Below, one piece after another: positions 1 through 55,400 of a stretch of 64,000 nucleotides of DNA (its first letter is position 1; the number at the start of each line of letters is the position of its first letter). The stretch lies in contig NMRA01000028.1 of assembly GCA_002633005.1 (NCBI GenBank), positions 953,556-1,017,555 on the forward strand, in the 5' to 3' direction. This DNA is from Phoronis australis (taxonomy: Eukaryota; Animalia; Phoronida). The notes under the pieces are model-generated. The model searched no databases and was not told where the DNA came from. It was given only the letters and a program-made list of their open reading frames with translations. A program made the position numbers and the translations under genes.

Positions 1-2324
1 TGGCGGAATTCCCAGCAACTGATAGGAGTGTCCAAACGAGATAAAGCATCAGCATTACCATGATGACAACCCTGGCGATACTCAATCAACATGTCATACT
101 GACTTAACTCTTCCAACCACCTGGCTAATTGACCCTCGGGATTCTTAAAATTAATTAACCATTGTAGACTACTATGGTCTGTACGAACCTTAAATGACCT
201 ACCCAATGAGAAGTGTCGAAATTGTCTCGTAAAACGAATAATAGCCAAAAGTTCCTTGCGGGTAGTACAGTAACGACGCTGTTCAGGAGTCAGAGAAACA
301 CTAGCATAGGCAATAACCCTCTCCTTCCCCTCCTGAATCTGCAGCAAATTACCACCTATGGCCACATCAGAAGCATCCGTATCCAAAATAAACAAATCTT
401 CCCTAGTGGGCAACGCTAGAACTGGAGGAATAACTAGACAATTCTTCAAGCTCACAAAAGCCACCTCCTGTTCCTGAGACCAAAAGAAATCAACTTTGCC
501 TGTTAGCACATACAAAGGAGCAGCGATTTCAGCAAATTTATCAACAAATGATCGGTGGTAATTTACCAACCCCAAAAACCGCTGGACCTCTCTAACATTT
601 GATGGTCTAGGCCAATCCTGAATGACTTTAATATGTTCCTGATTCATAGACAAAGCATTTCCATCTACCAAACGTCCCAAAAACTCGACTTTAGAATGGA
701 ACAGAACACACTTCTTGGGCTTTAACTTGAAGCCAAACTCTCTGAGACGTAAAAATACTTGACGTAAATGAATAAGATGGGTCTTAACATCTACTGACAT
801 AACTAGAACGTCATCTAGATAAGCCAAAACTGAATGCCATAGAAGACCATTCAAAATATGATTAATAACCCTGGAAAAAGTCGCAACTGCACCCTTACAA
901 CCAAATGGAAGTCTGAGAAAATGAAAAGTTCCGTAACGAGTAAGGAATGCTGTTTTTTTCCTATCCTCTTCTTTCAACTTCACTTGCCAATAAGCAGAAT
1001 TAGCATCCAACTTACTGAAAACTTTTTTCCCAGATATAGCGGCAAAGCAATCATCAGCTAATGGCTAAGGGTAATTGTCAGCCTCAGTAATGGCGTTAAG
1101 CGCTCTGAAATCAATGCAGTATCGTAATTTGCCATCTCGTTTCCGAATAATAACGGGATTCGAGGACCATTCAGAAACCGAAGGTTCTATAACACCAGCA
1201 TCTAACATTTTCTGAATATGCTCTTTCTCCTCACCGGCAAAAATTACTGGAGTACGTCGTAATCTAGTCTTACATGGAGGCTTATTCCCAGTATCAATCG
1301 AATGCTCCATAGCTGTAAAATTACCCAGGTCAAATTCAGAAGCAGCAAAAACGTCCTGAAATTCAATCAACAATGATTGCAACAACGAGGAGTCATTCTG
1401 AGATAAGAGCTCCTTAGAACGATCATACAGCTCAATCAAATGTTCTGGTAATATTGAATCATCTAAACCATTAACTTGGTTTACCCGCGGAGCCACCAAC
1501 CAATTTGGCAATGTAGAAACTACTTCACATGCTTCCGCTACAACCTGGCCAGCAGACAACGTCAAATGGTGTTCACTAAGGTTTAACAAAAACAAACGGC
1601 AAGGACAACCTTCCGAGTACAACGCCTCTAAAGCAACAAACGAATCACCAACTGACTGCACCAGGAATTTATCTAAAGGACGATCCAAAATACCATCAAT
1701 CAGAACAAATGAATTAGGTGGTAAACTAACTCGTCGACATAACTTAATTGGTACAGAAACTTCCTGCAGATCAACTTGTTTATCAATAATTGGATATGAG
1801 AGACCATCCAACAACAGGGAGCCCGAATCTAAGTCAACCACGGCTCTATACTTATAGAGAAAATCCAAGCCCAACAACAAATCATCAACAATGGGCGCTA
1901 CATAAAATTGACTTTCAAAAACACTACCCTGTATATGCAACGACATACTCTCCGTGAGAGCGGATGTAACCAACATGTCTCTACCGGCCATCCTAACATC
2001 CAAATTACTAAGTAAACAAGGTTTCTGTATCCAAGACTGAAAAACTTTATCAGAAAGGAGCGACACTTGAGCTCCCGTGTCAACAACTGCTAACAACTTT
2101 TCACCATTCAACTCAACTGGAATGTGACACAACAATCCTGTTCCCGAGTCATTAACCATTTTCTCGTTACTAGGGGACAACAAATTCACACGACTCCTAG
2201 CAACCCTAACATGAGACTCACAATTATCCTCAAAATTCTCAACATGAATCTTATCAGAGGCCTTAACTCCTAACTTCGACTGGATCGGGGATCGACCTCT
2301 CTCCTCGATCCTGGACGGTTTAAA
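1..2324 (-). pseudogene. pol: Pol (protease-RT-RNaseH), in the -1 frame relative to gag, with one in-frame TAG at 1065-1067
   Basis: Frame is open from the slippery site to 1068 and again from 1064 to the window edge: ...ADNYP*PLADD...LDANSAYWQ...LPFG...YLDD...FLGLVNYH...DTDASD... Confidence 0.9.
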
Positions 2325-3862
2325 TCTACTTCCTCCGAGGAGTTACCGGAGACCGTCGAACAAGCCTGATCACTATGTCCATAACCTTGACAGATTCTAC
2401 AAGTTACTGTTCTATTAGGACAATTGTCCGACAAATGCCCTCTACCCTTACAGGAGAAGCAGTAACGTTGTCTTCCAGAACTGGTTTGTCTGCATTCCCT
2501 AGCAATATGCCCAATCTTGTTACACCGATAACATCTGATTTTGCCTTTACTGCTGTTGGGTTTTTTAGGAGAAGTCTGACCCTCCTGATCTGGAACCGTC
2601 TTATCAACCTTTGTTTTAGAGGGTTGACTGTGCCCCTGAACCTGTCGCACAACAAAGTTACCTTGGCGAGGGCCAAACACAGCGCGTTTACTGTGGCGTT
2701 GCCAATGTGCCCTCTGCACCGCCTCATCCATCGATAAGGGGAGTGGATTTGACAATGAGAACGCCAAATCCTTATCACTCAACCCATGACAAAATCTAGT
2801 TACAGCCTGAACATGGGCATAACCTTCACCCACATCAGCGAAAGCTCTAGTAGCTAAGTCCAAAATCCTATCAGCCCATTCAAAATCAGATTCTTGGGGT
2901 TCTTGTCTAGCGCTTTGGAATTCTAACTTATGCGCCTCAGGCAAAAAGGATTTCCCGAACCTACGCTGTAGACATGACTTAGCATGATCAAATGTCAAGG
3001 TCGGGTAACGCTTAATCAATGAAGACAGGTATTCTTCAGCCTTTTCATGCATACACAACAACAATAAATCAACTTGATTTTCAGGGGACACATGATGTTG
3101 ACGAAGGAATATCTCAAACTTGGTCACAAAAGCCGACCAACTAGTCTTACCATTATAAGACAAAGTCTTCGGAGGATCTCTCCAACCTGAACTAGTTCTA
3201 GGCAACCTAAACTGTGTCAAAGGATTAACCTCTGCATACTGATTATTCATGTGACCAACTGTCGGTTCTGATATCACTGAGGGACTTGCCCTATAAGAGC
3301 CTGGATTAACAACTGAACTATTTACTCTTGGTGGAAGGCCAAATCTATCAACATAAGGAGTAAAAACCTCCTGGGGTTCAGTCTTAATACCTTGTACAAA
3401 CTTAGGTACAGGTCTCATCAACCCTGGCTTAACATCAGCTACTCTAGTAGTTGTAGAAAACGTAGTCACACATGGGGCAGGTTTCCCTGAAATGCTACTG
3501 CCTGCAACAGTGAAAACCGGCTTATGTTCCCGAACTATCTTTGGTTTACTGGCACTCACCGCTCTCTCTTCCCCTTCTTTAAAAGCAAAGGACGGCTTGT
3601 TAGTTATAGCGGAAACTGACTGCGCCACTACCGGAGAAGATTGAACGAATCCTAGTCTCGAAGGAAGGTCAAATCTTTCACTACTAGATATTCCAGGTGA
3701 AAACCTCTCCAAAGATGGCATAGAATCACATTCTCCAACTTCATCAACAGTAATTCTCTCTGAACAAGTTGTTACAATTTGAGACAACTCAAATTTTTCA
3801 ACTAAATCTTGAGCAGCCACAGTAATGGCAGATACAAAGTCCCGGATGAGACTAGACGCCAT
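2270..3862 (-). CDS. gag: Gag polyprotein (530 aa) with three CCHC zinc knuckles
   Basis: Intact ATG-to-TAG ORF; capsid-like YNGKTSW..F..KFE and QE..ES...W motifs; CYRCNKIGHIAREC, CFSCKGRGHLSDNC, CRICQGYGHSDQAC. Confidence 0.92.
   Translation of the reverse strand: MASSLIRDFVSAITVAAQDLVEKFELSQIVTTCSERITVDEVGECDSMPSLERFSPGISSSERFDLPSRLGFVQSSPVVAQSVSAITNKPSFAFKEGEERAVSASKPKIVREHKPVFTVAGSSISGKPAPCVTTFSTTTRVADVKPGLMRPVPKFVQGIKTEPQEVFTPYVDRFGLPPRVNSSVVNPGSYRASPSVISEPTVGHMNNQYAEVNPLTQFRLPRTSSGWRDPPKTLSYNGKTSWSAFVTKFEIFLRQHHVSPENQVDLLLLCMHEKAEEYLSSLIKRYPTLTFDHAKSCLQRRFGKSFLPEAHKLEFQSARQEPQESDFEWADRILDLATRAFADVGEGYAHVQAVTRFCHGLSDKDLAFSLSNPLPLSMDEAVQRAHWQRHSKRAVFGPRQGNFVVRQVQGHSQPSKTKVDKTVPDQEGQTSPKKPNSSKGKIRCYRCNKIGHIARECRQTSSGRQRYCFSCKGRGHLSDNCPNRTVTCRICQGYGHSDQACSTVSGNSSEEVDLNRPGSRREVDPRSSRS
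2289..2324 (-). promoter_or_regulatory. -1 programmed ribosomal frameshift signal
   Basis: U UUA AAC in the gag frame (2318-2324), 6-nt spacer, then 7-bp hairpin GGATCGA-GGAGAGAGG-TCGATCC (2289-2311). Confidence 0.85.
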
Positions 3863-4007
3863 TATAGGAAAAACACGTGGAACTACTCCAGAACACCCCC
3901 AAAGAATGCGTGGAGTGACAGGGGAGACCCCTCAGTTAACTTCAAATCAAAATAATCGAAGATATCAAAACAAATGCAAGAAAGCCAACAAAGTAAGCAA
4001 CTAATTT

Positions 4008-4021
4008 CACGTTGGGTGCCA
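4008..4021 (-). promoter_or_regulatory. Primer-binding site, tRNA-Lys(CUU)-like
   Basis: TGGCACCCAACGTG just inside the LTR; matches the Lys1,2 PBS TGGCGCCCAACGTG with one mismatch. Confidence 0.8.
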
Positions 4022-4027
4022 AAAATG

Positions 4028-4257
4028 TGTTGTGAACCTCTGCTAAAAGTTCAGTCAGGCCCCTTATAGGTTAACTCATTAGGGCCGGCGCTCACCTGCA
4101 TTTTTATCTTTCGTCTTCTCTCTTAGTCTTCAGACACCTCTTTCTAGCTCTGCAGAACACTAACTAACTAATATCTACACACGAGGGCTACCCGCATAAC
4201 CCAAACGAGGCTGTCACCTCTGAGCATAGTGACCCGGAACTTCCGGAGTTCACTACA
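4028..4257 (-). repeat. 5' LTR (~230 bp)
   Basis: Minus-strand TGTAGTGAAC...GTTCACAACA termini (TG..CA, 10-bp imperfect inverted repeat) just upstream of the PBS. The partner LTR is outside the window. Confidence 0.75.
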
Positions 4258-4895
4258 GACTAAATGAATGATTTTTGGTATCTCTGCATTCCTCAGACAT
4301 CTTGCTATCCGTACATATCCACTTCATGACCCTCAATTACTTCGATTTATAACTACGCTATTCCGAACTCGGTCCACTTAAGCCACGCGCATTGTGAAAT
4401 CGGCAGCCATTTCAGGGAACTTATTATACCAAGTGCCATCTATCGGCGATCTGCTATCTACAACATGCGCTGTTCCTTTTTCATCAGTCAACGTCATTGG
4501 TCGATTTTGTCAATTATTAACGTCATCGTTATTAATCATCGTTATGTCTGCTCTCGTCATCACCTTCATCATCTCTCTCGCCATCTTATCTGTCATCGTC
4601 ATGTGTTGTTATCGTCGTCCATGAGACGAGTACCGACATGTATAGTTTGTCAAATGGGTGAACTTAATAGTAAAGCAAGTTAATTTACTAGGCCTATATT
4701 GTGTAGTGTCTCAAACATCATCATATGGCCCTGCACCGTTGTCACTCGTCCTTTACGTTACTGGTGTCATCACTGTCATTGTCTAGGTTGGTCTAAGTTA
4801 CCGCCATGATCATTTTTTGGTTTATGTATTGATCACATGATTGTATTTGAATTTCTATTTAGTTTGGTAAGTGAAACAGTCCAATTGGGAAAATG

Positions 4896-4920
4896 TGGGT
4901 GGCCCTTAAAAGGGCCGTTG
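4896..4920 (-). promoter_or_regulatory. Histone-type 3' stem-loop downstream of the transposase
   Basis: CAAC-GGCCCT-TTTA-AGGGCC-ACCCA on the minus strand; the stem begins 25 nt after the transposase TGA. Confidence 0.8.
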
Positions 4921-4941
4921 GGGGGTATCAGTCAGTACCGC

Positions 4942-5490
4942 TCAAGGCGTCTGATACTGCGACCACTGAGATAAGTGCAACAGCACGTTGTTGAAGGCGT
5001 CTTTGGCTGTTCTTCCATAGTGCAGACGCCACATAAATTCGTCCAAATATTCTTTTAGCTTGTCGTCGTTTGCCCTACACATGGACTTGAACCTGCGTTT
5101 TGCGTTCTTCCAAAAGCATTCGACGTGATTGGTGTGGGCACCTGTGATCAGATCGACGAAGTTCTGATTGTGATTCACTGTCTGGTGTTGATATGGAGGA
5201 TTCACTGGAAGGTTCACTATGCCATTGTATGCCGCCCACATGTCTGAGTGCACAATAGACCCTGGTGCCATACAACGCTGTATGATGGGCAGCAGTTTCT
5301 GAGCGGAACGATCTGGAACAAATTCTAAAAATCCGAAAGCCTGGGCTGGCCAATAGCCCCCAAACGCCCACCGCTTGGGTACAGGGTGGCCGACGTTATT
5401 TATTCTCCACGCCATCAAAGTTTCGTCGATCTGTACTACGATACCAAGACCGCCGACCTGTCTTGGATTCGCTACCAGGTGGTTACTACT
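4942..5490 (-). mobile_element. Merlin / ISXO2-like (IS1595 family) DDE transposase, 5'-truncated
   Basis: Frame open from ~5490: RQVGGLGIVVQIDET...WAFGG...VPDRSAQKLLPII...PGSIVHSDMWAAY...HQTVNHNQNFVD..TGAHTNHVECFWKNAK...YLDEFMWR. All three catalytic residues are present; the N-terminal domain is missing. Confidence 0.9.
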
Positions 5491-6464
5491 TCTTTTTTTT
5501 TAGTCGACCGACTATTTTGTTAGTAAAAGTTTCACATCGTCAAGAATTCGAACCCCCCCATATTGAAGGCTGGATGCGCACATGATCCAGTAACATCGGT
5601 TTTATTTTTGAGTTTTAATACTTCACGTATTTACAACCAACTTAAGTGTGGCAATGGCAAATTGTAAGAAATGTGTACAATTTATCAGTAGTCGCTGTGC
5701 ACCCTTTATGTTACAGTCTCTGTACTTTGGCCATGAAAAGAACATTTTGCCCTTTTTGGACGCGCATATACACTGAACAGACCCATTACTACTAGTCAAA
5801 TTGGGCGCATGTGATTTTCTCGTGGCAAAACATAGGCAAAATGTGACAAAACACAGGTGATAATTGCTTTGAATCCGAGTACCAAGTTTGGCGGTGACAC
5901 TCAGGCCGGAAGGGAGTGAAATTAAGCTGATGCACTGAGGTCACCAGTGCCAAACCTCCCACAAAAACCAGTCCGCATGAAAAAAAGTGAGGTGCACTAC
6001 CTATGATAAAGGTGGTACTGAAGTGGGTGCAACGAAGGTCTGTAGTGGAGGGGAGAGGGAATTTGTGTGAACTTTCCACTTTATATTATAGATATGGTAA
6101 CCATTGCCATATTAAAATTATTAAAAATTGAACCATTCTTTGGTGTAAAACAAAACGCTTAAATTCTGATGAGAGGCATGTTTTGAATATGGGCATTTCC
6201 ATCCACGGATGTAGCACCATCTAGCAGTAACCTGACAAATGAATTTCTACCTCAACGAAGGGCTGTTGTTGCAGTAAGACGGGTTATTGTCAATCACAGC
6301 AATGTCGCTTAAGTAAAACGATGTTGGGCACGGTGTAGAACTTTTCAAATATAGAGTATTTTGTGAATATGTGTTTATATAGATGTAAAGATGTAACAAT
6401 TTTTGGCGACTTAATCAACTCGATGAGTAACATAAGCAGATCACCTGACACAATTATTATTATG

Positions 6465-6606
6465 ATTAAAAAACAGACAATCACTGCACAAATAAAGAAG
6501 TTCATGTTCATCGTCAAGATACAATAAGCTGATGTCTAGTGAATAGACGAACCGTTGAATGAAGATGAACTTTTTTATTTGTGCGGCGATTGTCCGTTTT
6601 TAAATC
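6465..6606. repeat. Imperfect palindrome / foldback element
   Basis: TTAAAAAACAGACAATCACTGCACAAATAAAGAAGTTCAT pairs with ATGAACTTTTTTATTTGTGCGGCGATTGTCCGTTTTTAA. Confidence 0.6.
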
Positions 6607-7498
6607 TTACTGTGGCCAAAAACTGATGTAATTATTATTACGAGTTGTTGAGAGTGCACGGAATAGAAAGTATGGCAGGACCACTTGAATTTGAGGTTGA
6701 AATTATCAATTTCTTGTGACCCTTCACACTATGAACTCTTTCCAGATGACACCCTGACAACATAAATAATGCTAACTAATGACAGCAGTGGCAACAACTA
6801 ATTAACCATTTAAAACAAAGGTCTTGATTTAAACAGTATAGAACAGTAGCAGTGAAAAGTTTTCAGTGATGATTTTATTAGCAGTTGATGAAATGTCTTT
6901 GTCCAACAGGACTAGAAGTTTTAAGGCCCTTATATTATATGTATTTTTCTCCATCACCACAGACGCTAGTTCCACCTGTTGGTGAAGATTATTTTTGACT
7001 GGTCATCCTGTCACTTGTTGTCCAATAGCAGAAACTACACATTGTGTTTTCTCTTTATCAGAACATGAGTGTGAAACCTTTATACCGTAATCTATTTTGC
7101 CGTAATAATCTTATCGATAAGCTAACGTTCTGTGCTGAGTATTCTTTCATCCCTGTTGTGTTGTAAAAGTTATTGAAATTTGATTGACATTCCAGTAGAA
7201 CTTTCTTTCCCCCAGAATTTGTGCTACATAATCTGCCCCCGTGACCTCGTTGCAGCAGCTGATGTTTGACCTAGTTATACTCTTATCTGAGGTGACTAGC
7301 TCTGATACAGCCCCCTGACTGCCTTGTAGTCAGCAGTCTGTGAGTGTGCAAGTCAGCTTGCAGTTGAGTCTGTTGGTTTTACTCTGAAAACTTGAAAACT
7401 TCAGCTACTGGTATTTGGACTTCTAGTCCTAGCAATTTGCATGTTGTTCTGGCTTGAGAACATTGTTTTTTCTCAAGTGCTCCCCGAAAAGCTTGCAC

Positions 7499-20735
<13,237 letters not shown>

Positions 20736-40400: not shown

Positions 40401-43400
40401 TCATCCATAGTCCATAAATGCTAAATAATGTAGGATGCAAATGTCTACGGACACAAAATAACACAGTTTTAAATCCCGCTGCTGTTACAAACTGTGGAAA
40501 TAAAACATCATTCCACACCTACAGGACACATATGTTCCACATACACAACTGCGTTCACTGACCTGCAGGCCATAAACTCTGAGTGCAGCCTTCCTGATAG
40601 CCTGCCTCATGGCCAGTTGCAGGTTACCCAGTTCATGGTGCTGCATTACAAAGGCCATGACAGGCCTTTGCATGGCCTTGTCAGACATTGTCTTGTGGCG
40701 CCCTCCCTTGTCAGTTGCCTTGATCAAGTTGGACATGGCACAAGATGGATTCTTCAGCAATGACAGCCCACTATCTGTGAAGCAGTGTGCAAGATAAATA
40801 TACAACAAATTGGAAAGGTTGATCTCCAATCACTGGTTAGTGATCACATGGCATATGTTGTCACATGATATATGATATCATAGTGAATAAGGGACATAAG
40901 AACACAGTCTGTAAGAAAACAAAAATGCTGCTCTCATGAACTGGGAAGTAACAATGAAAATCTCGAGATTCACTAGGTATCTCTAGTGAATCAAATGACT
41001 TTCATGTCGAAATCCCTCTATTTAGGTAAATGCTGATGATCTGCTTTTCATTTCCACCATATTCAGATGTCAAAAAGTGAAACCTTTATTTACTAGCGCC
41101 ACCTAGTGGACATGGAGACACCCATTCTCAGCACTTTCCCAAGTGATATGAAGGTTAACAATGGGAAAGGATTGTGTAGCATTGCTTCTAATTGATTAAC
41201 AGGACAAAGTAACATTTGGAGATTCTGATTGGATGGATGAAGAGAAATGCATAAACCATCCACTGACAAATGTTTTGTGGCTAGTCGCTGCTGCAAAAAC
41301 AAAAACAAATTAACTTGATACATTATTCCACCTAACTTTGTGTTTCAAAGTGATTCATTATTCTTTTTTGGCTCATACCTAGACCCTATGTATACAATAT
41401 ACATCCAAACCAAGACAAGCGCACTTATACCAACACACAAACTTCTGCACGCTGACCATCATCCTTTTACAGGGCCATTCTCCTCTACAGGTGGCACTGT
41501 AAACGCGGATATTCTATGCAAAGCACAGTAATTACCAATTAAACATTAACTAGAGACAGTTTCCACTAACTACACGATTCTGAATGTAACACAACTACAG
41601 GACGATATTAGTAACATCAACTCGGCAAACACTCTGAGACATTCATTGAGGATGCATTTTCAAATTCAATGAAAATAAGAGTCACATGACATGCTTTGCA
41701 GGTGGTTAAAAACATCCAATTTTCCTGTCTTTCTACACAAACAAAAACATTACCATAAACAACAACTACCACTAACCCTATCGTAGCCATAACATTACTA
41801 CTCCACAAAATCGTGCCTCCTAAACCTGCATTAAAACTTGAATGGATGGTCATCATGTTCTTACCTCCGCTGATGTTGCGTCGTCTCACCGAACCTTTTC
41901 TGTGTGTGTTACCCATGATGTCAAAGCCAATACAAGATGAAGCGTCCCCTTGCTCAACACCAGGGCGCAGCTCTGACACACTGCGCGTCAACATGGCCCC
42001 TTTGCTTGATGGCTCATCATTTGTGTGACCCCGCCTGGGACTAGTGGTGGGTGAATGGATTTCCTAAAACAATACATTGTTTTCAAGTTTTATTACTATT
42101 ATTTTTGTAACAGACAACTATATAATAATAAGTATTTCTAAATATTTAAATCTTAACCTGGTGCGAAAATGTGTACCGCAAACATTTCTAAGCCTAGCTA
42201 GCATGTCGGCTGTGACCATATCACGTTAGCAGAAGGTCCCGGGTTCAAGTCCCGGTAGGCAAACTTATGTAAATTAGGTCACGTGATGTGGCCACACGTG
42301 GCGTGCTGGCCAGACTTATGCTTGAAATATATCACAATGTGTAAAACCCAAAACAAGACGGAAAAATGTATAAAAATACAACAAGCAACAATACGTGTAC
42401 ACATACATTACGATAAAAAATCTTCAGTTTGGGACACAACATGGCAGACAGGTGAAATTTCATTGTGTCAAATTTCAATCAAAAATAACTTTTCAGGAAA
42501 ATTTCCTTTGCTTTTAGCATGTTTTGCATGGCCAACATATTACTAAATTACATTTTGAGTATTTGCAACAATATGGTAAGCCTCAGGAGATGAGACCAAC
42601 AGGTGGCGTGCAGGCTAGACTTATTATGTTTGTGAAAGACACATTTACAGTACCTTGGCAGGATCAAACAGCCCAGCTTGGTAAGCCTGTTGAAGTCTTT
42701 TCCTCATCTGATAAGCACCAACACCTGGTCCAAGGGACTCTGCCTTGATTGTTTGAATCTTGTCTTCACCCTGGGCCACTATCACCTCCTCATTGAAGGC
42801 ACTGTCTGCATCATCGGCCCCACGCTGACTGAGATACTGAAAGGGGACCAAGGGGAATGGCGTCTGCTCCAAAAACAGAAACTCGTCGCTAACGCTTGGC
42901 AGGTAAGAGTCAGTTCTTGTCAGTGCACTCATAATGGCATCCGGCGACTTGGATGATGAAAAATGAACGCCAGCAGAGCTGGTAAGATTGAGCAAGAACA
43001 AGGCATTGTTCATCATGATCTGATGTGCCTCCAGTGCTGGTTGACCCACTTTTCGCTGCTGTCGTTTCATTTTCATGTCAGGTTCTTTAGGGGGGAACAA
43101 TGTCCGCCGCTCACTTACGTACTTGTCGCGACACTGATGACAGATCAAGTACCAGGTGAGCCGCCACAGAAGATCCCGCCACTGTTGTAGCCCTGACCAC
43201 CGGCTGGCTTGCCACAACCGTAGTGATGTTTGCGCATGTGATAAGTGACAGGATGAGGGTACATACCCCCACACAAGTCACACATGGTCTGATTCTCTTG
43301 GTTTATGCCGGGGAAGTGACGCGGCATCTCGCCGAAGCGCATGCCGATCATCATCATTTCACGTCGCTCCATCATCATGCGTTCCATGTCGTAGCGGTCC

Positions 43401-46400
43401 TCCTGCGGTTTGTAGATGTCCAGGGCGGGGCTTTCGGTGATTGACTTCTCCTGGATGATGCGTATGGTGGCTGAGGACATACACTCCCAGAAGAAGACGA
43501 GATGTTTCAAGGTCGGCAACAACTCTGACCTCCTGGACGACGTGGGAGAGGCAGGAGGTGATGATTGATCAAACGATGCCACCTTTGTGAGAACACTTTT
43601 CTCTGACTTGTGTCGCTCTTTCTTTGTCCTCTCTGGTTCAGGTGGCAAGTTTATGTTGAAGTGCACTGACTTCTTCCCACCACCATGTTTTGGACTCGTG
43701 TCTTCCACCTGAATACCAGCAGCATCTCCGCTACTGTTCTTGTCACCTATGCCACCTGAACCACTGACACCAGGCTGGGGTCCTGGCTTATCAAACACAA
43801 AAACGTCACTAGAGGGCATCTCTTTGGCGAGGTTGGGATGGAACTTGAGAAACGATGCACATGCCATAGCATCATGGACAATTCCTTCGTGCCACAAGAA
43901 AGCTGCAAACACCGTTCTCAGGCACTCAGCAACAGATGGCGTCATGGCCGTAGTGACTGGCTTGGGCTGAGATACCACAGCAGGCTTCAGCGACGACGGC
44001 TTCTGTGGGGGCACTGGTGATGAGGAGCGACCTTCACGCTTGCTGCGTAGTGATTGGCTACGAGAACTCTTCCTAGACAACTTGGGAGACATTCTGAAAT
44101 TTTATAAATGATCTCAAAGTTGTAATATGCTTGTATTAGTTGCTGCCTCTTGTCGTGTTTTTGTATCGGTTTGTTGTAAAGCAACACCTAAAGAGAGGTC
44201 GCATTTAACAGTATCAAATTTTGGGACATGAATAAACTGTTAACGGACATTGCATTGAGTGTTATCAGGGCTTGGAATGACCAATGACAAAAAAAGCGGA
44301 AACTTTACGGCCCAAATCATGCGCGCTACCCAGCCTTGAAATGGTCGATGTGAACCTTTCNGCACTGACTTCTTCCCGCCACCATGTTTTGGACTCGTGT
44401 CTTCCACCTGAATACCAGCAGCATCTCCGCTACTGTTCTTGTCACCTATGCCACCTGAACCACTGACACCAGGCTGGGGTCCTGGCTTATCAAACACAAA
44501 AACGTCACTAGTGGGCATCTCTTTGGCGAGGTTGGGATGGAACTTGAGAAACGATGCACAGGCCATAGCATCATGGACAATTCCTTCGTGCCACAAGAAA
44601 GCTGCAAACACCGTTCTCAGGCACTCAGCAACAGATGGCGTCATGGCCGTAGTGACTGGCTTGGGCTGAGATGCCACAGCAGGCTTCAGCGACGACGGCT
44701 TCTGTGGGGGCACTGGTGATGAGGAGCGACCTTCACGCTTGCTGCGTAGTGATTGGCTACGAGAACTCTTCCTAGACAACTTGGGAGACATTCTGAAATT
44801 TTATAAATGATCTCAAAGTTGTAATATGCTTGTATTAGTTGCTGCCTCTTGTCGTGTTTTTGTATCGGTTTGTTGTAAAGCAACACCTAAAGAGAGGTCG
44901 CATTTAACAGTATCAAATTTTGGGACATGAATAAACTGTTAACAGACATTGCATTGAGTGTTATCAGGGCTTGGAATGACCAATGACAAAAAAAGCGGAA
45001 ACTTTACAGCCCAAATCATGCGCGCTACCCAGCCTTGAAATGGTCGATGTGAACCTTTCCCCGACAAAAATCAGGACTAAAAAAAAAACGACACTACCAC
45101 CATCAGTAGCATGCATCTGCGTCCTTTTAGCTCGTCCTTATCGTCCTTCCACTCCCAACCCACACATTTTTGGCTGCAGAGCCGTAGTATTTATCGCCGC
45201 GGTTTGCAATAACACGAGACGCCATTGAAAATGCCACCTAGCTTACCCAGATGCCCCGGCAATGTTGACAATTTACGTTCCTCCGAAACATAAAGAGCAA
45301 CTTCCGCTTTTCGAGGTGAACGTCGTCTGCAACGCCGCGGTAAGAAAGGTATTTGCCGCGGAAATTTTATATCAAATCCGATTTTTTTACGTGGAAATAT
45401 TATAAAATGCGCGGAAAGAACATTTGAAAAAAGCGGAAATCCGCGTTTCCGCGGAAAATTCCAAGCCCTGGTGTTATAGCAAATTGCCGAAAATAGGCTC
45501 ATGGGCAGATATTAGGAAAACTGCTTTTCAAAAATGTCGTCACGTGAAATCAATAGGGGCACACTTCCAAACACTTACAGTTTTTGAGCAAAGAAAAGGT
45601 GAACTTGAAGACCTCCATAAGTATGAGGTGAGTCATGCACACACTGAGGTATGCAGTGAATTTCAGCTAAAAATGAATACTTCCCTCAAAACGTATTACA
45701 TAGTTACGCATTTTAGAACAATCCATCAGATTTTCTAAACATGCAAACAGTTACCAAAAACACACCCATAACCGTACTTTTGGAAAATTTTCTGAAAATA
45801 CGTGCATGGGCCTATTTTTGAGTGGGCCTATTTTTGGAAATTCTAGGTACAAAATTGTCCAGCTGTTAGCAACCAGATTTAAACTGATTAACCAGGAAAA
45901 CTGGAAATAATGATTAGTCTTTAAGTAAAATAACCATTAAGATATTGTCAAGCATCAGGCAGGTATTGCATTAATCATTCAAGACATTCTGAACTTACTA
46001 TTAGATTCTGATGAAGCTTGAACAGACAGAAGGTAGTGTTGTGATCAACAGCACTTGTACTATTGCCATAAGTGTAATTAAAAACAAACCTTGCCGAGTC
46101 TTCTTTCTTTGGTGAACCCGAATAGCCAATGCTGAAACGGCTAACAGGGGGCTCTGGTGGACTGGTCTGTGTAGCCGCAGTCCTACTAGGACTGGGACTA
46201 CTTTCGCGGAACAGTCGGACATCCCCCTTGGCTGGACTTCCATGGCGTGGCGAGCGACTGCAAAAACCAACAACATACTTAAACTTGTTATTTAAAATCC
46301 AGTTACATTTAAAACATGCATTCAACAATTCTTCTTGCAATTTGGCAAATATCACAACCAACTTTGTCACTGATTATGTTCAGTACATGTCACCAAAATG

Positions 46401-52400: not shown

Positions 52401-55400
52401 AAAACTTAGTCATATTTGATTTTCAAGACAGCAGTCCAGTAAACCAAAAAAGCTTTGCCTTTAAACTGGGTCACCACCCATAACCCTCAGTGCTTCATTT
52501 CCATCAGTTATTCATAACTCTTGTACATTTTCTGCTCAGGTGCTGAATGAGTTTTACAGAACACAACGGACTTGATTTGTTATTCCTTCTTTCCCACCAG
52601 TCTTGCATTCACACATTTATCATATTATAATTTTAATTTGTTCTATACTTTTCATTTCTTTAAATTTTTTGGTACTTAAGTGAACTAAAAAATTACAATA
52701 AAAACAATAAACATCGACATCGTTTCTAATACTCTAAACAAGCCTTACCTCATCAACGTATTCAATAATTCCATTGGGCAGGATGATGCCAATCTTCTCA
52801 GCCTGGAGAGACGGACTCAAACGCACACGGAGGCCAGCTGAATAATCAGCAACAAACTTCCTCAGCTGAAACACACAGCAATTAGCATGAAATATATTGG
52901 ATCTCCACAGTACAGCCATTCAGACAACAGCATTATTTGTAACATAAGAAGCCTTGGAAATTGGAAAAGGTCAGAAACGATATCAGGTGCTTGTTTTTGT
53001 CTGAAACTGTTGACATTTTCCCAAGAGCCAGACTGCTGTAACGCAGTTCTGGAGTAAGGTGGGTTAATGTATATGAACCTTCCACAGATGCATTATATCC
53101 AGGTTAGAGCTCATCAGTTGTAGATATGGTACATTAAGATTTGTTGGAGGTTGCACAGTTTGGGGTTATCCAAAGTACACATGATAACAATACAGCGTCC
53201 TATGTCAACCAACAGGACAGTTAAAACTTGCCTTCTTAGGTTTGTTGGCTTGTTTTGTGATCTGCGACTGAGAAGGAGGGTAGACTCCAGCTGGAGGGTC
53301 TTTTACCTCCACACGGTAGATTTCACCTGGAATAGAAATACGGACATGAACAACAGGTGGGGCGATGAAACCATCCAGAAACACATCAAGCAGAAATAAT
53401 CCTGGCACTTATTATACAACAATGCACAAATAAATACTACATCACTCATGAAGCATATATTTCTAGGAGCCGCAACAAAGATGATGTGAGTTAAGGTGAT
53501 ATATAAATCACTACTAGCAGTGTTTTCACTGATGAAAACATGCCTAAAACCAACCACTAAGAGAAAAAAGCCATAGTGTATCCACAAATGAAGGCATAAA
53601 TGTTGTACCACCTTGTACATAAACTTCTCAGTCATAGAGTACCCATCAATGACAGCATAGATACTCACTCTACCACCTTGTACATGTTGGACCCAATGAT
53701 GGCATAAACATTGTACCATCCTGTACATAAATTTCCCAGTCATAGAGTACCCATCAATGACAGCATAAATACTCACTCTACCACCTTGTACATGTTGGAC
53801 CCAATGATGGCATAAATATTGTACCATCCTGTACATAAATTTCCCAGTCATAAAGTACCCATCAATGACAGCATAGATATTTACTCTACCACCTTGTACA
53901 TGTTGGACCCAATGATGGCATAAATATTGTACCATCCTGTACATAAATTTCCCAGTCATAGAGTACCCATCAATGACAGCATAGATACTCACTCTACCAC
54001 CTTGTACATGTTGGACCCAATGATGGCATAAATATTGTACCATCCTGTGCATAAATTTCCCAGTCATAGAGTACCCATCAATGACAGCATAGATACTCAC
54101 TCTACCACCTTGTACATGTTGGACCCAATGATGGCATAAATATTGTACCATCCTGTACATAAACTTCTCAGTCATAGAGTACCCATCAATGACAACACGG
54201 ATGCTGTGCCACCCTGTACACGCTGCACCCGCACAGATTGCCCTTCAATGACATAAATATTGTACCAACAACTTACCCATAGAGTAGCCATCAATGATGG
54301 CGTGTATATTGTACCACCCTGCTCTGGATGGTGTCCAGTTGGCCAACACTGTCCCATCGTGATTTGGACGCACTAGCATGTTCTCACTGGGACGACGACT
54401 GCCAGGTGAAGTGAAGCGAAGCTCTTCAAACGAGTAGTTCTCGTATTCCTGTAAACATGGAACAATGTGAGGTGCACCAACTAACGACAAAACAAGGGAA
54501 ATAAGTAACAGATAAAACACCAGCGTGTACAAGTAGGAATGTGAAGTGTTCACCTGGCCCCAAGCATAATGTGAAGTGTTCGCCTGGCCCCAAGCATAAT
54601 GTGAAGTATTCACCTGGCCCCAAGCATAATATGAAGTATTCACCTGGCCCCAAGCATAATGTGGCTGTCTGCTAAGTTAAATGGGCCTTTTGTTGCTGTT
54701 TAACTGCCAGTGTTGAATTCTAAACTTGTCTGAAGCATTTTGGGGTTTAAAAACATAAAACCAAACTCATTTTTTCTTGAACTATTCTAAAATCAGTTGG
54801 CAAACTCAAGTCAAAGGCAATGTGGACTTTAGAAGTATAGCAGTTTTAGGGTTGGACAAACTCAATACGCCTTGACGCACTTCCTTGAGTTGTTATATTC
54901 TTGTTGGTAAATAAAATCGAGTCCAATTTTTTGTGAACAATGATTTCTGGCAAGTAATCCAACTAGGGGTCATTTTGATGTGGTGTTTGAGTTGATACAG
55001 GAAACAAAATAGCTGGACAGGGTTAAGCTTGGGTGATTACAATTTGGCCATAGTTTAACCATTGAGTTGACATGTTCTAACCTAAATCTGGAATTGCCTT
55101 TGGGAAAGTACAAGACTAAACCTTTGACTTGACACTACTTTGATCAAACTCCAATGCGCTGATTTGATGAGATCAGAGAAAACATCCTTTACCAATTAAG
55201 ATTTAAATGATCTTGACACTTCTATTGACAGACGAACAGTTCTTACCGGCATCATAGTGATGGCGTGGAATCTGTCCTTGTTCTCGCGTATCGTCATCTG
55301 GTAAGGTACACTAACATTGGGAACACTGTGACCGCCATACAGGACACTACCACCCAGGTCTACAGGCATGGGCTCCTCTGTACGGCCACCATCACCATCC

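Follow-up and report, generated by a model that had tools for sequence, protein, structure and literature searches.

The minus strand of the 64-kb window (the whole stretch of DNA analysed) carries at positions 4942 to 5499 the C-terminal 185 codons of a Merlin/IS1595-type DDE transposase, open to a TGA at 4944-4942 and identified by a Pfam match and by its homologues. The ORF (5499-4942) matched PF12762 DDE_Tnp_IS1595 with an E-value of 2.5e-17, the catalytic motifs IDE, HSD and HVE were present, and the alignment residues D19, D80 and E121 were conserved. Identity to its best homologues, which include ISXO2-like proteins from Elysia and Plakobranchus, was 55-60%, and animal Merlin-type proteins, named ones from Elysia, Plakobranchus and Caligus included, were no more than 60% identical. 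The N-terminal residues (about 120) had no match anywhere in the 64-kb window when 10 homologues were used in tblastn searches. The copy is thus 5′-truncated, as a sequence-only reading of this DNA had already claimed. The cut-off point coincides with the end of a different, high-copy repeat (5495 to 5584, unstranded), recognised by a depth 10-100 times that of its surroundings and by many loose ends. Diverged Merlin copies ceased to match at 5489, near the start of this repeat (about 5495). A partner TIR was sought in 3900-6000 and none was found, so that the window copy has no TIR pair. Lacking a promoter and an N-terminus, it is probably dead.

Several other features were recorded in the window. 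A Gag with a zinc knuckle, followed in an overlapping frame by a protease and the start of an RT, marked an LTR retroelement at 1065-3931 (minus strand) whose pol was cut short; beside it, near 4020, lies what we take to be a PBS-like motif. Two near-identical starts of a MYCBP2 exon were found at 43145-44101 and 44240-44800 (minus strand), the second holding the window's one N, and this doubling is probably an assembly duplication. The exon marked the host as an animal, with a best identity of 42% that pointed to no particular phylum. An open frame at 53303-54244 (minus strand) was built of tandemly repeated units, each about 33 codons long, and is probably a minisatellite.

Behind the stop codon of the transposase, the minus strand reads CAAC GGCCCT TTTA AGGGCC ACCCA at 4920-4896, with the stem starting at 4916, 25 nt past the TGA. 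This is the sequence and the distance that had been noted before. The histone-type 6-bp stem and 4-nt loop (4901 to 4916, minus strand) form a predicted SLBP site. The stem is preceded by an AC-rich 5′ flank, CCAAC (4917 to 4921, minus strand), and followed by the 3′ flank ACCCA (4896 to 4900, minus strand). By analogy with the rule, given in a passage of PMC7026596, that cleavage falls 4-5 nt past the stem-loop, cleavage would be predicted after 4896. The Rfam Histone3 model (RF00032), a comparison the sequence-only reading had proposed, matched 4921-4876 with 38.5 bits (gathering cut-off 34, E 1e-07), and this was the sole Rfam match at gathering level in the whole 64 kb. The MFE and centroid folds each contained the hairpin, although overall the 86-nt stretch was not unusually stable (z -1.37). 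It was the only hairpin of this type in the window, with one zero-mismatch site in 127,964 positions, and an exact search of IMG/VR with its 21-nt pattern gave 0 matches. Neither AATAAA nor ATTAAA occurred within 300 nt of the hairpin, which bears out and extends the earlier remark that no AATAAA lies just downstream. No histone ORF was found by eye among ORFs of at least 60 aa in 1-12000 or of at least 150 aa in the whole window, in agreement with the same reading.

The absence of a clear purine-rich U7-binding element from the window copy had also been judged correctly, since a purine HDE-like core was sought downstream of the hairpin and was absent. A downstream block at +15 to +32 (AATTGGACTGTTTCACTT; 4869 to 4886, minus strand) is a candidate host-type HDE without the usual purine core, and is common to four host records. 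Against the mouse U7 5′ end it formed 12 Watson-Crick pairs and 1 GU pair out of 18, in a register close to that of the H2a HDE of mouse. Such pairing was matched by 0.6% of window positions (best-of-10), a post hoc figure computed with the U7 of mouse and not of the host, and 2% of random duplexes were as stable. Judging from its presence at other hairpin loci of the host and from these pairings, the block may be a host-type HDE. In bivalve histone genes, purine-rich elements vary in position or went undetected, according to a passage of PMC6210712.

The 3′ end of the element was sought in two places. We dropped 4866-4895 as a 3′ TIR, because the host records sharing the downstream block lack a CC end there and another copy matches as far as 4861. 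A possible 3′ TIR remnant lies at 4786 to 4807 (plus strand), of which 4795-4807 matches the inner TIR of a related element (L003) in 11 of 13 letters. One host record matched 4795-4924 and was unlike the window for the 120 nt before 4795. With either candidate end, 4866-4895 or 4786-4807, the hairpin lies inside the element.

Dispersed Merlin copies were found in the host genome as contigs about 83-90% identical over the ORF (DNA runs X1-X3, from one study). Contigs from X2 and X3 included copies spanning both the ORF and the hairpin, one about 83% identical (4867-5414 and 4867-5162) and one 90% identical (4861-5113). Both kept the hairpin with one change each (4915 and 4911, respectively), and each change breaks a pair. 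These changes fit the decay of dead copies and give no sign of selection in this genome. The 90% copy differed in 15 other letters, of which the 14 listed lie outside 4861-4895; we infer that the stretch downstream of the hairpin was ancestral to both copies and is not a product of decay in the window copy. Four other host records (4-7, run X3) matched from 4869 or 4873 to 4915 or 4922 with 5-9 differences, the match stopping at 4869-4873. Where they could be extended their flanks were unlike the window on both sides, and only the hairpin and the downstream block were common. Some of the other host loci sharing hairpin and block were transcribed past the hairpin (RNA reads X5/X6).

Three RNA runs carrying the same species label were searched, with library type and strandedness unspecified and about a fifth of each run used. 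They gave 10, 18 and 0 reads on 4830-5040 (the 0 in X7), 28 in all, among which read ends did not pile up at ACCCA. Where reads were obtained, 2-6 per run and direction crossed 4896; these were near-identical to the window locus, their RNA strand being uncertain. In X6 the reads of the other direction, mostly from diverged copies and very few in number, dropped over the hairpin to 1, against 5-7 in the ORF. From a further run (X8) no contig covering the transposase was obtained, which weighs neither way. Nothing but read-through would be visible in a poly(A)-selected library, and the window copy has no promoter of its own. The 28 reads neither show nor exclude histone-type cleavage.

Relatives of the window element were recovered as metagenome contig loci, of which the best 80 of 102 were analysed; two of the 80 end inside the ORF, leaving 78 with a called stop. 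A hairpin with 0-2 mismatches to the 18-nt consensus was found near the stop in 35 of these 78 loci. The other 43 had at least 5 mismatches, with no intermediates, and 5 of them have just 53-63 nt after the stop. As many loci were redundant, they were grouped at 80% nucleotide identity into 41 clusters, of which 12 had the hairpin and none was mixed. The transposases of the hairpin clusters and the window were 32-77% identical (median 54.5%). Between clusters the hairpin was 86% and the ACCMA 82% identical, and the flanks 26-29%; the AC-rich 5′ flank had a mean identity of 64% among cluster representatives, against 26% further upstream. In an Rfam scan covering 46 distinct loci of the 80, the cut-off was reached in 8 of 13 clusters including the window, 4 more had E-values of at most 0.012, and one locus (L059) gave no match. 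The earlier prospect that other family members might prove to be without a hairpin was not borne out, as both the diverged host copies and related loci carry it.

The hairpin in the relatives was always in sense to the ORF and at one element end only. For 32 of the 35 loci the distance from the stop to the start of the stem was 16-59 nt, and in the remaining 3 a frameshift moves the called stop. Across 16 aligned rows, 96.9% of stem cells were paired. Both-sided changes were counted in 9 cells at 2 pairs, a number inflated by relatedness and reached in 0 of 500 shuffles; only 2 of the 6 stem pairs covary. GG-ended TIRs were found in L001, L003, L004, L005, L006, L010, L020/L021, L036 and L039, with an 8-bp TSD in L020/L021 and L039, one mismatch in the TSD of L001 and L036, and none detected in L004, L005, L006 and L010. 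In L004, L005, L006, L010, L020/L021 (with the 8-bp TSD) and L036 the hairpin lay 200-320 nt inside the TIRs. The sequence-only reading had looked to other copies for a hairpin at a constant distance from the stop, with compensatory changes and inside the TIR, and had allowed that it might lie outside the element boundary. The relatives have it near the stop, mostly at 16-59 nt, with such changes and within the TIRs.

Six hairpin loci had intact single ORFs of 293-323 aa, five of which had a TATA box lying 56-69 nt ahead of the ATG. CCAAT and TATA boxes were also present in L003 and L012, which have no hairpin, and histone-like promoter boxes do not separate the two groups. AATAAA or ATTAAA was found within 300 nt in 2 of 12 representatives with the hairpin and 8 of 23 without it, which is a weak contrast. 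Tandem duplications of the hairpin, together with an HDE-like element, were seen in the 3′ region of three Merlin loci (L008 at 2588/2831, L054 at 1840/2044 and L011 at 1365/1390).

As a control, 80 phage IS1595 loci were scanned and no histone-type hairpin was found after the stop. Two of them (L101 and L102), flagged at the stop by a relaxed hairpin scan, were rejected since neither their loop nor their 3′ flank is histone-like; one zero-mismatch site in another (L128) lies 1.3 kb upstream of the stop. The background amounted to 7 sites with at most 2 mismatches in 458,085 positions, 2 of the 7 being tandem cassette copies. Viral contigs, scanned with a single sequence, yielded no relative.

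The conserved box of U7 is UCUUU (PMC5054213). In 11 of the 12 related hairpin clusters (11 of 13 when the window is included) the motif RRRGR, which can pair with this box, began at +14/15, and control windows further down had it in 0-1 of 12-13.

Conclusions on the history of the cassette were drawn from careful 45- and 33-row trees, with rows picked as cluster representatives; a 115-row tree served as a quick tree. The hairpin clusters formed one clade (support 91-93/87-90) that includes three rows without a hairpin, L012, L067 and L078. The 12 hairpin clusters are therefore not 12 independent events. The window protein was placed elsewhere (90/97 and 96/95), with L001, L002 and L003, which have no hairpin. 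A single clade of the window and the hairpin group was rejected (AU p 0.004 and 0.003), the group having been named after the tree was seen. Among the best 80 of 102 relatives, the closest ones with DNA (L001, L002, L003 and L007) were without the hairpin. Its absence from these and from L012, L067 and L078 implies that most Merlins do without it.

L012, inside the hairpin clade, has an intact Merlin ORF of 296 aa (1505-2395) accompanied by CCAAT and TATA boxes, and no hairpin in the 589 nt past its stop; a return to polyadenylation is possible in this element. Under parsimony, 4 changes were needed for the hairpin. Together with the separate clades, this requires either two or more gains or a cassette of old origin that was often lost. 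Probably host genes supplied the cassette on separate occasions, to the window lineage and to the main hairpin clade, or it is old and has often been lost. The differing downstream elements of the two lineages would fit separate capture or adaptation to the U7 of different hosts.

The window copy shares the DDE_Tnp_IS1595 domain with the Merlin superfamily (related to IS1016/IS1595), and its relatives share the single ORF of about 300 aa, the GG-ended TIRs and the 8-bp TSDs. Merlin TIRs of 24-462 bp with GG ends and TSDs of 8-9 bp are given in part of the survey PMC8101967. The window copy itself differs in showing neither a TIR pair nor a TSD, its 5′ end being lost. The window copy and its hairpin-bearing relatives differ from the superfamily as surveyed in having a histone-type 3′ cassette after the stop. 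With the 3′ end of metazoan replication-dependent histone mRNAs these Merlins have in common the 16-nt hairpin, the AC-rich 5′ flank and ACCMA, as well as a short 3′ UTR and an intronless ORF, and the relatives also have the purine core downstream. Unlike in histone mRNAs, the ORF encodes a transposase, and the downstream block of the window copy has no AAAGA-like core.

The hairpin is real and not a chance occurrence, and it is to be ascribed to Merlin lineages, not to the window locus. The comparison of copies and relatives supports its belonging to the transposon and not to a neighbouring histone relic. Our preferred explanation, which we regard as likely, is that the locus holds a truncated, probably dead Merlin with a histone-type 3′ cassette kept by related lineages, and that active elements would use SLBP and U7 and have no poly(A) tail. 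The proposal that this transposon co-opted the histone 3′-end machinery gains support at the sequence level from the covariation and from the HDE-like core at a fixed distance in the relatives. Passages in PMC7026596 and PMC5011920 describe SLBP on the hairpin, U7 on the HDE and cleavage by CPSF73 4-5 nt past the stem-loop, and the same passages describe an untailed histone mRNA that is stable and translated while SLBP is present, in S phase. By analogy with this pathway, SLBP would bind the Merlin hairpin, U7 would pair with the downstream element of the mRNA, and CPSF73 would cut 4-5 nt past the stem, leaving no poly(A) tail. With roughly even chances, the stability and translation of the transposase mRNA would then follow SLBP, and so be confined to S phase or to oocytes and early embryos. 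An old idea is that movement during replication lets cut-and-paste transposons gain copies. The benefit here would be such a gain, during replication and in the germ line. Transposition behind the fork may add copies, and insertions in eggs or early embryos would be heritable, a step on which we are about equally divided. The fuller proposition, that at least two animal Merlin lineages separately took over the complete histone 3′-end system, with an HDE matched to the host U7, and became non-polyadenylated SLBP clients of S phase or eggs, is in our estimate evenly balanced.

Other explanations share parts of this evidence. The hairpin could bind SLBP in an mRNA that is read through and polyadenylated, with SLBP governing storage and translation in the oocyte and not U7 cleavage. 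We consider this unlikely. Maternal histone mRNAs of Drosophila offer a precedent, being described in part of PMC11997800 as polyadenylated, SLBP-dependent and U7-independent; there the hairpin is used by a non-standard route, in histone genes and with no mobile element involved. Histone mRNAs of C. elegans, according to a passage of PMC1924863, have their ends after the hairpin even though a poly(A) signal is present, and these too are histone genes and not mobile elements. Read-through would fit the missing purine core of the window copy and the RNA reads that cross the predicted cut. However, a purine core at a fixed distance, as in 11 of the 12 related clusters, is needed by U7 pairing and not by SLBP binding, and a poly(A) hexamer within 300 nt is absent from 10 of the 12 representatives with the hairpin. 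Merlins lying near histone genes, or recombined with them, might instead have picked up a 3′ end that they carry unused. The hairpin and downstream block common to other host loci look as they would after such a capture, and the patchy distribution and the stem breaks in dead copies agree with it. Against passive carriage stand a hairpin 86% identical across transposases about 55% identical with flanks at the random level, its fixed orientation and distance to the stop, and the lack of any histone coding remnant between stop and hairpin. It is largely refuted for the main clade, and overall we give it a decidedly small probability, somewhat below that of read-through.

A role of the hairpin and of 4866-4895 at the DNA level, in the TIR or as a transposase binding site, is very improbable. 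The GG at 4866-4867 could open a Merlin TIR, and the match to one diverged copy ends at 4867, but the host records and the copy reaching 4861 that removed 4866-4895 from consideration speak against it, as does the position of the hairpin in the relatives, 200-320 nt inside the TIR, at one end and always in sense to the ORF. That the hairpin formed by chance, or lies by chance beside a histone relic, has a negligible probability. The motif is short and its Rfam score only 4.5 bits over the cut-off, but it recurs in 35 related loci as well as in diverged copies from the host species, with 0 matches in IMG/VR, and the recurrence refutes chance.

In the freely accessible full-text literature we found no paper linking a transposase gene to a histone stem-loop. 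The main text of the Merlin survey (PMC8101967) contains neither “histone” nor “stem-loop”. Histone mRNAs are apparently the sole mRNAs processed by the SLBP/U7 route (PMC5054213). On the evidence of these sequences, it is likely that a known transposon family has a hairpin variant using a pathway hitherto regarded as histone-specific. If a family of transposases retains histone signals across long divergence, it would represent a natural client of SLBP and U7 outside the histones, and the claim can be tested in nuclear extracts and reporter assays with intact elements such as L004, L005 and L010. If it is true, the rule that only histone mRNAs use SLBP and U7 would be broken. The elements would be hidden from poly(A) RNA-seq, so that poly(A)-selected surveys would undercount their activity, and these cut-and-paste elements would have a built-in replication timer and with it a mechanism for gaining copies during replication.
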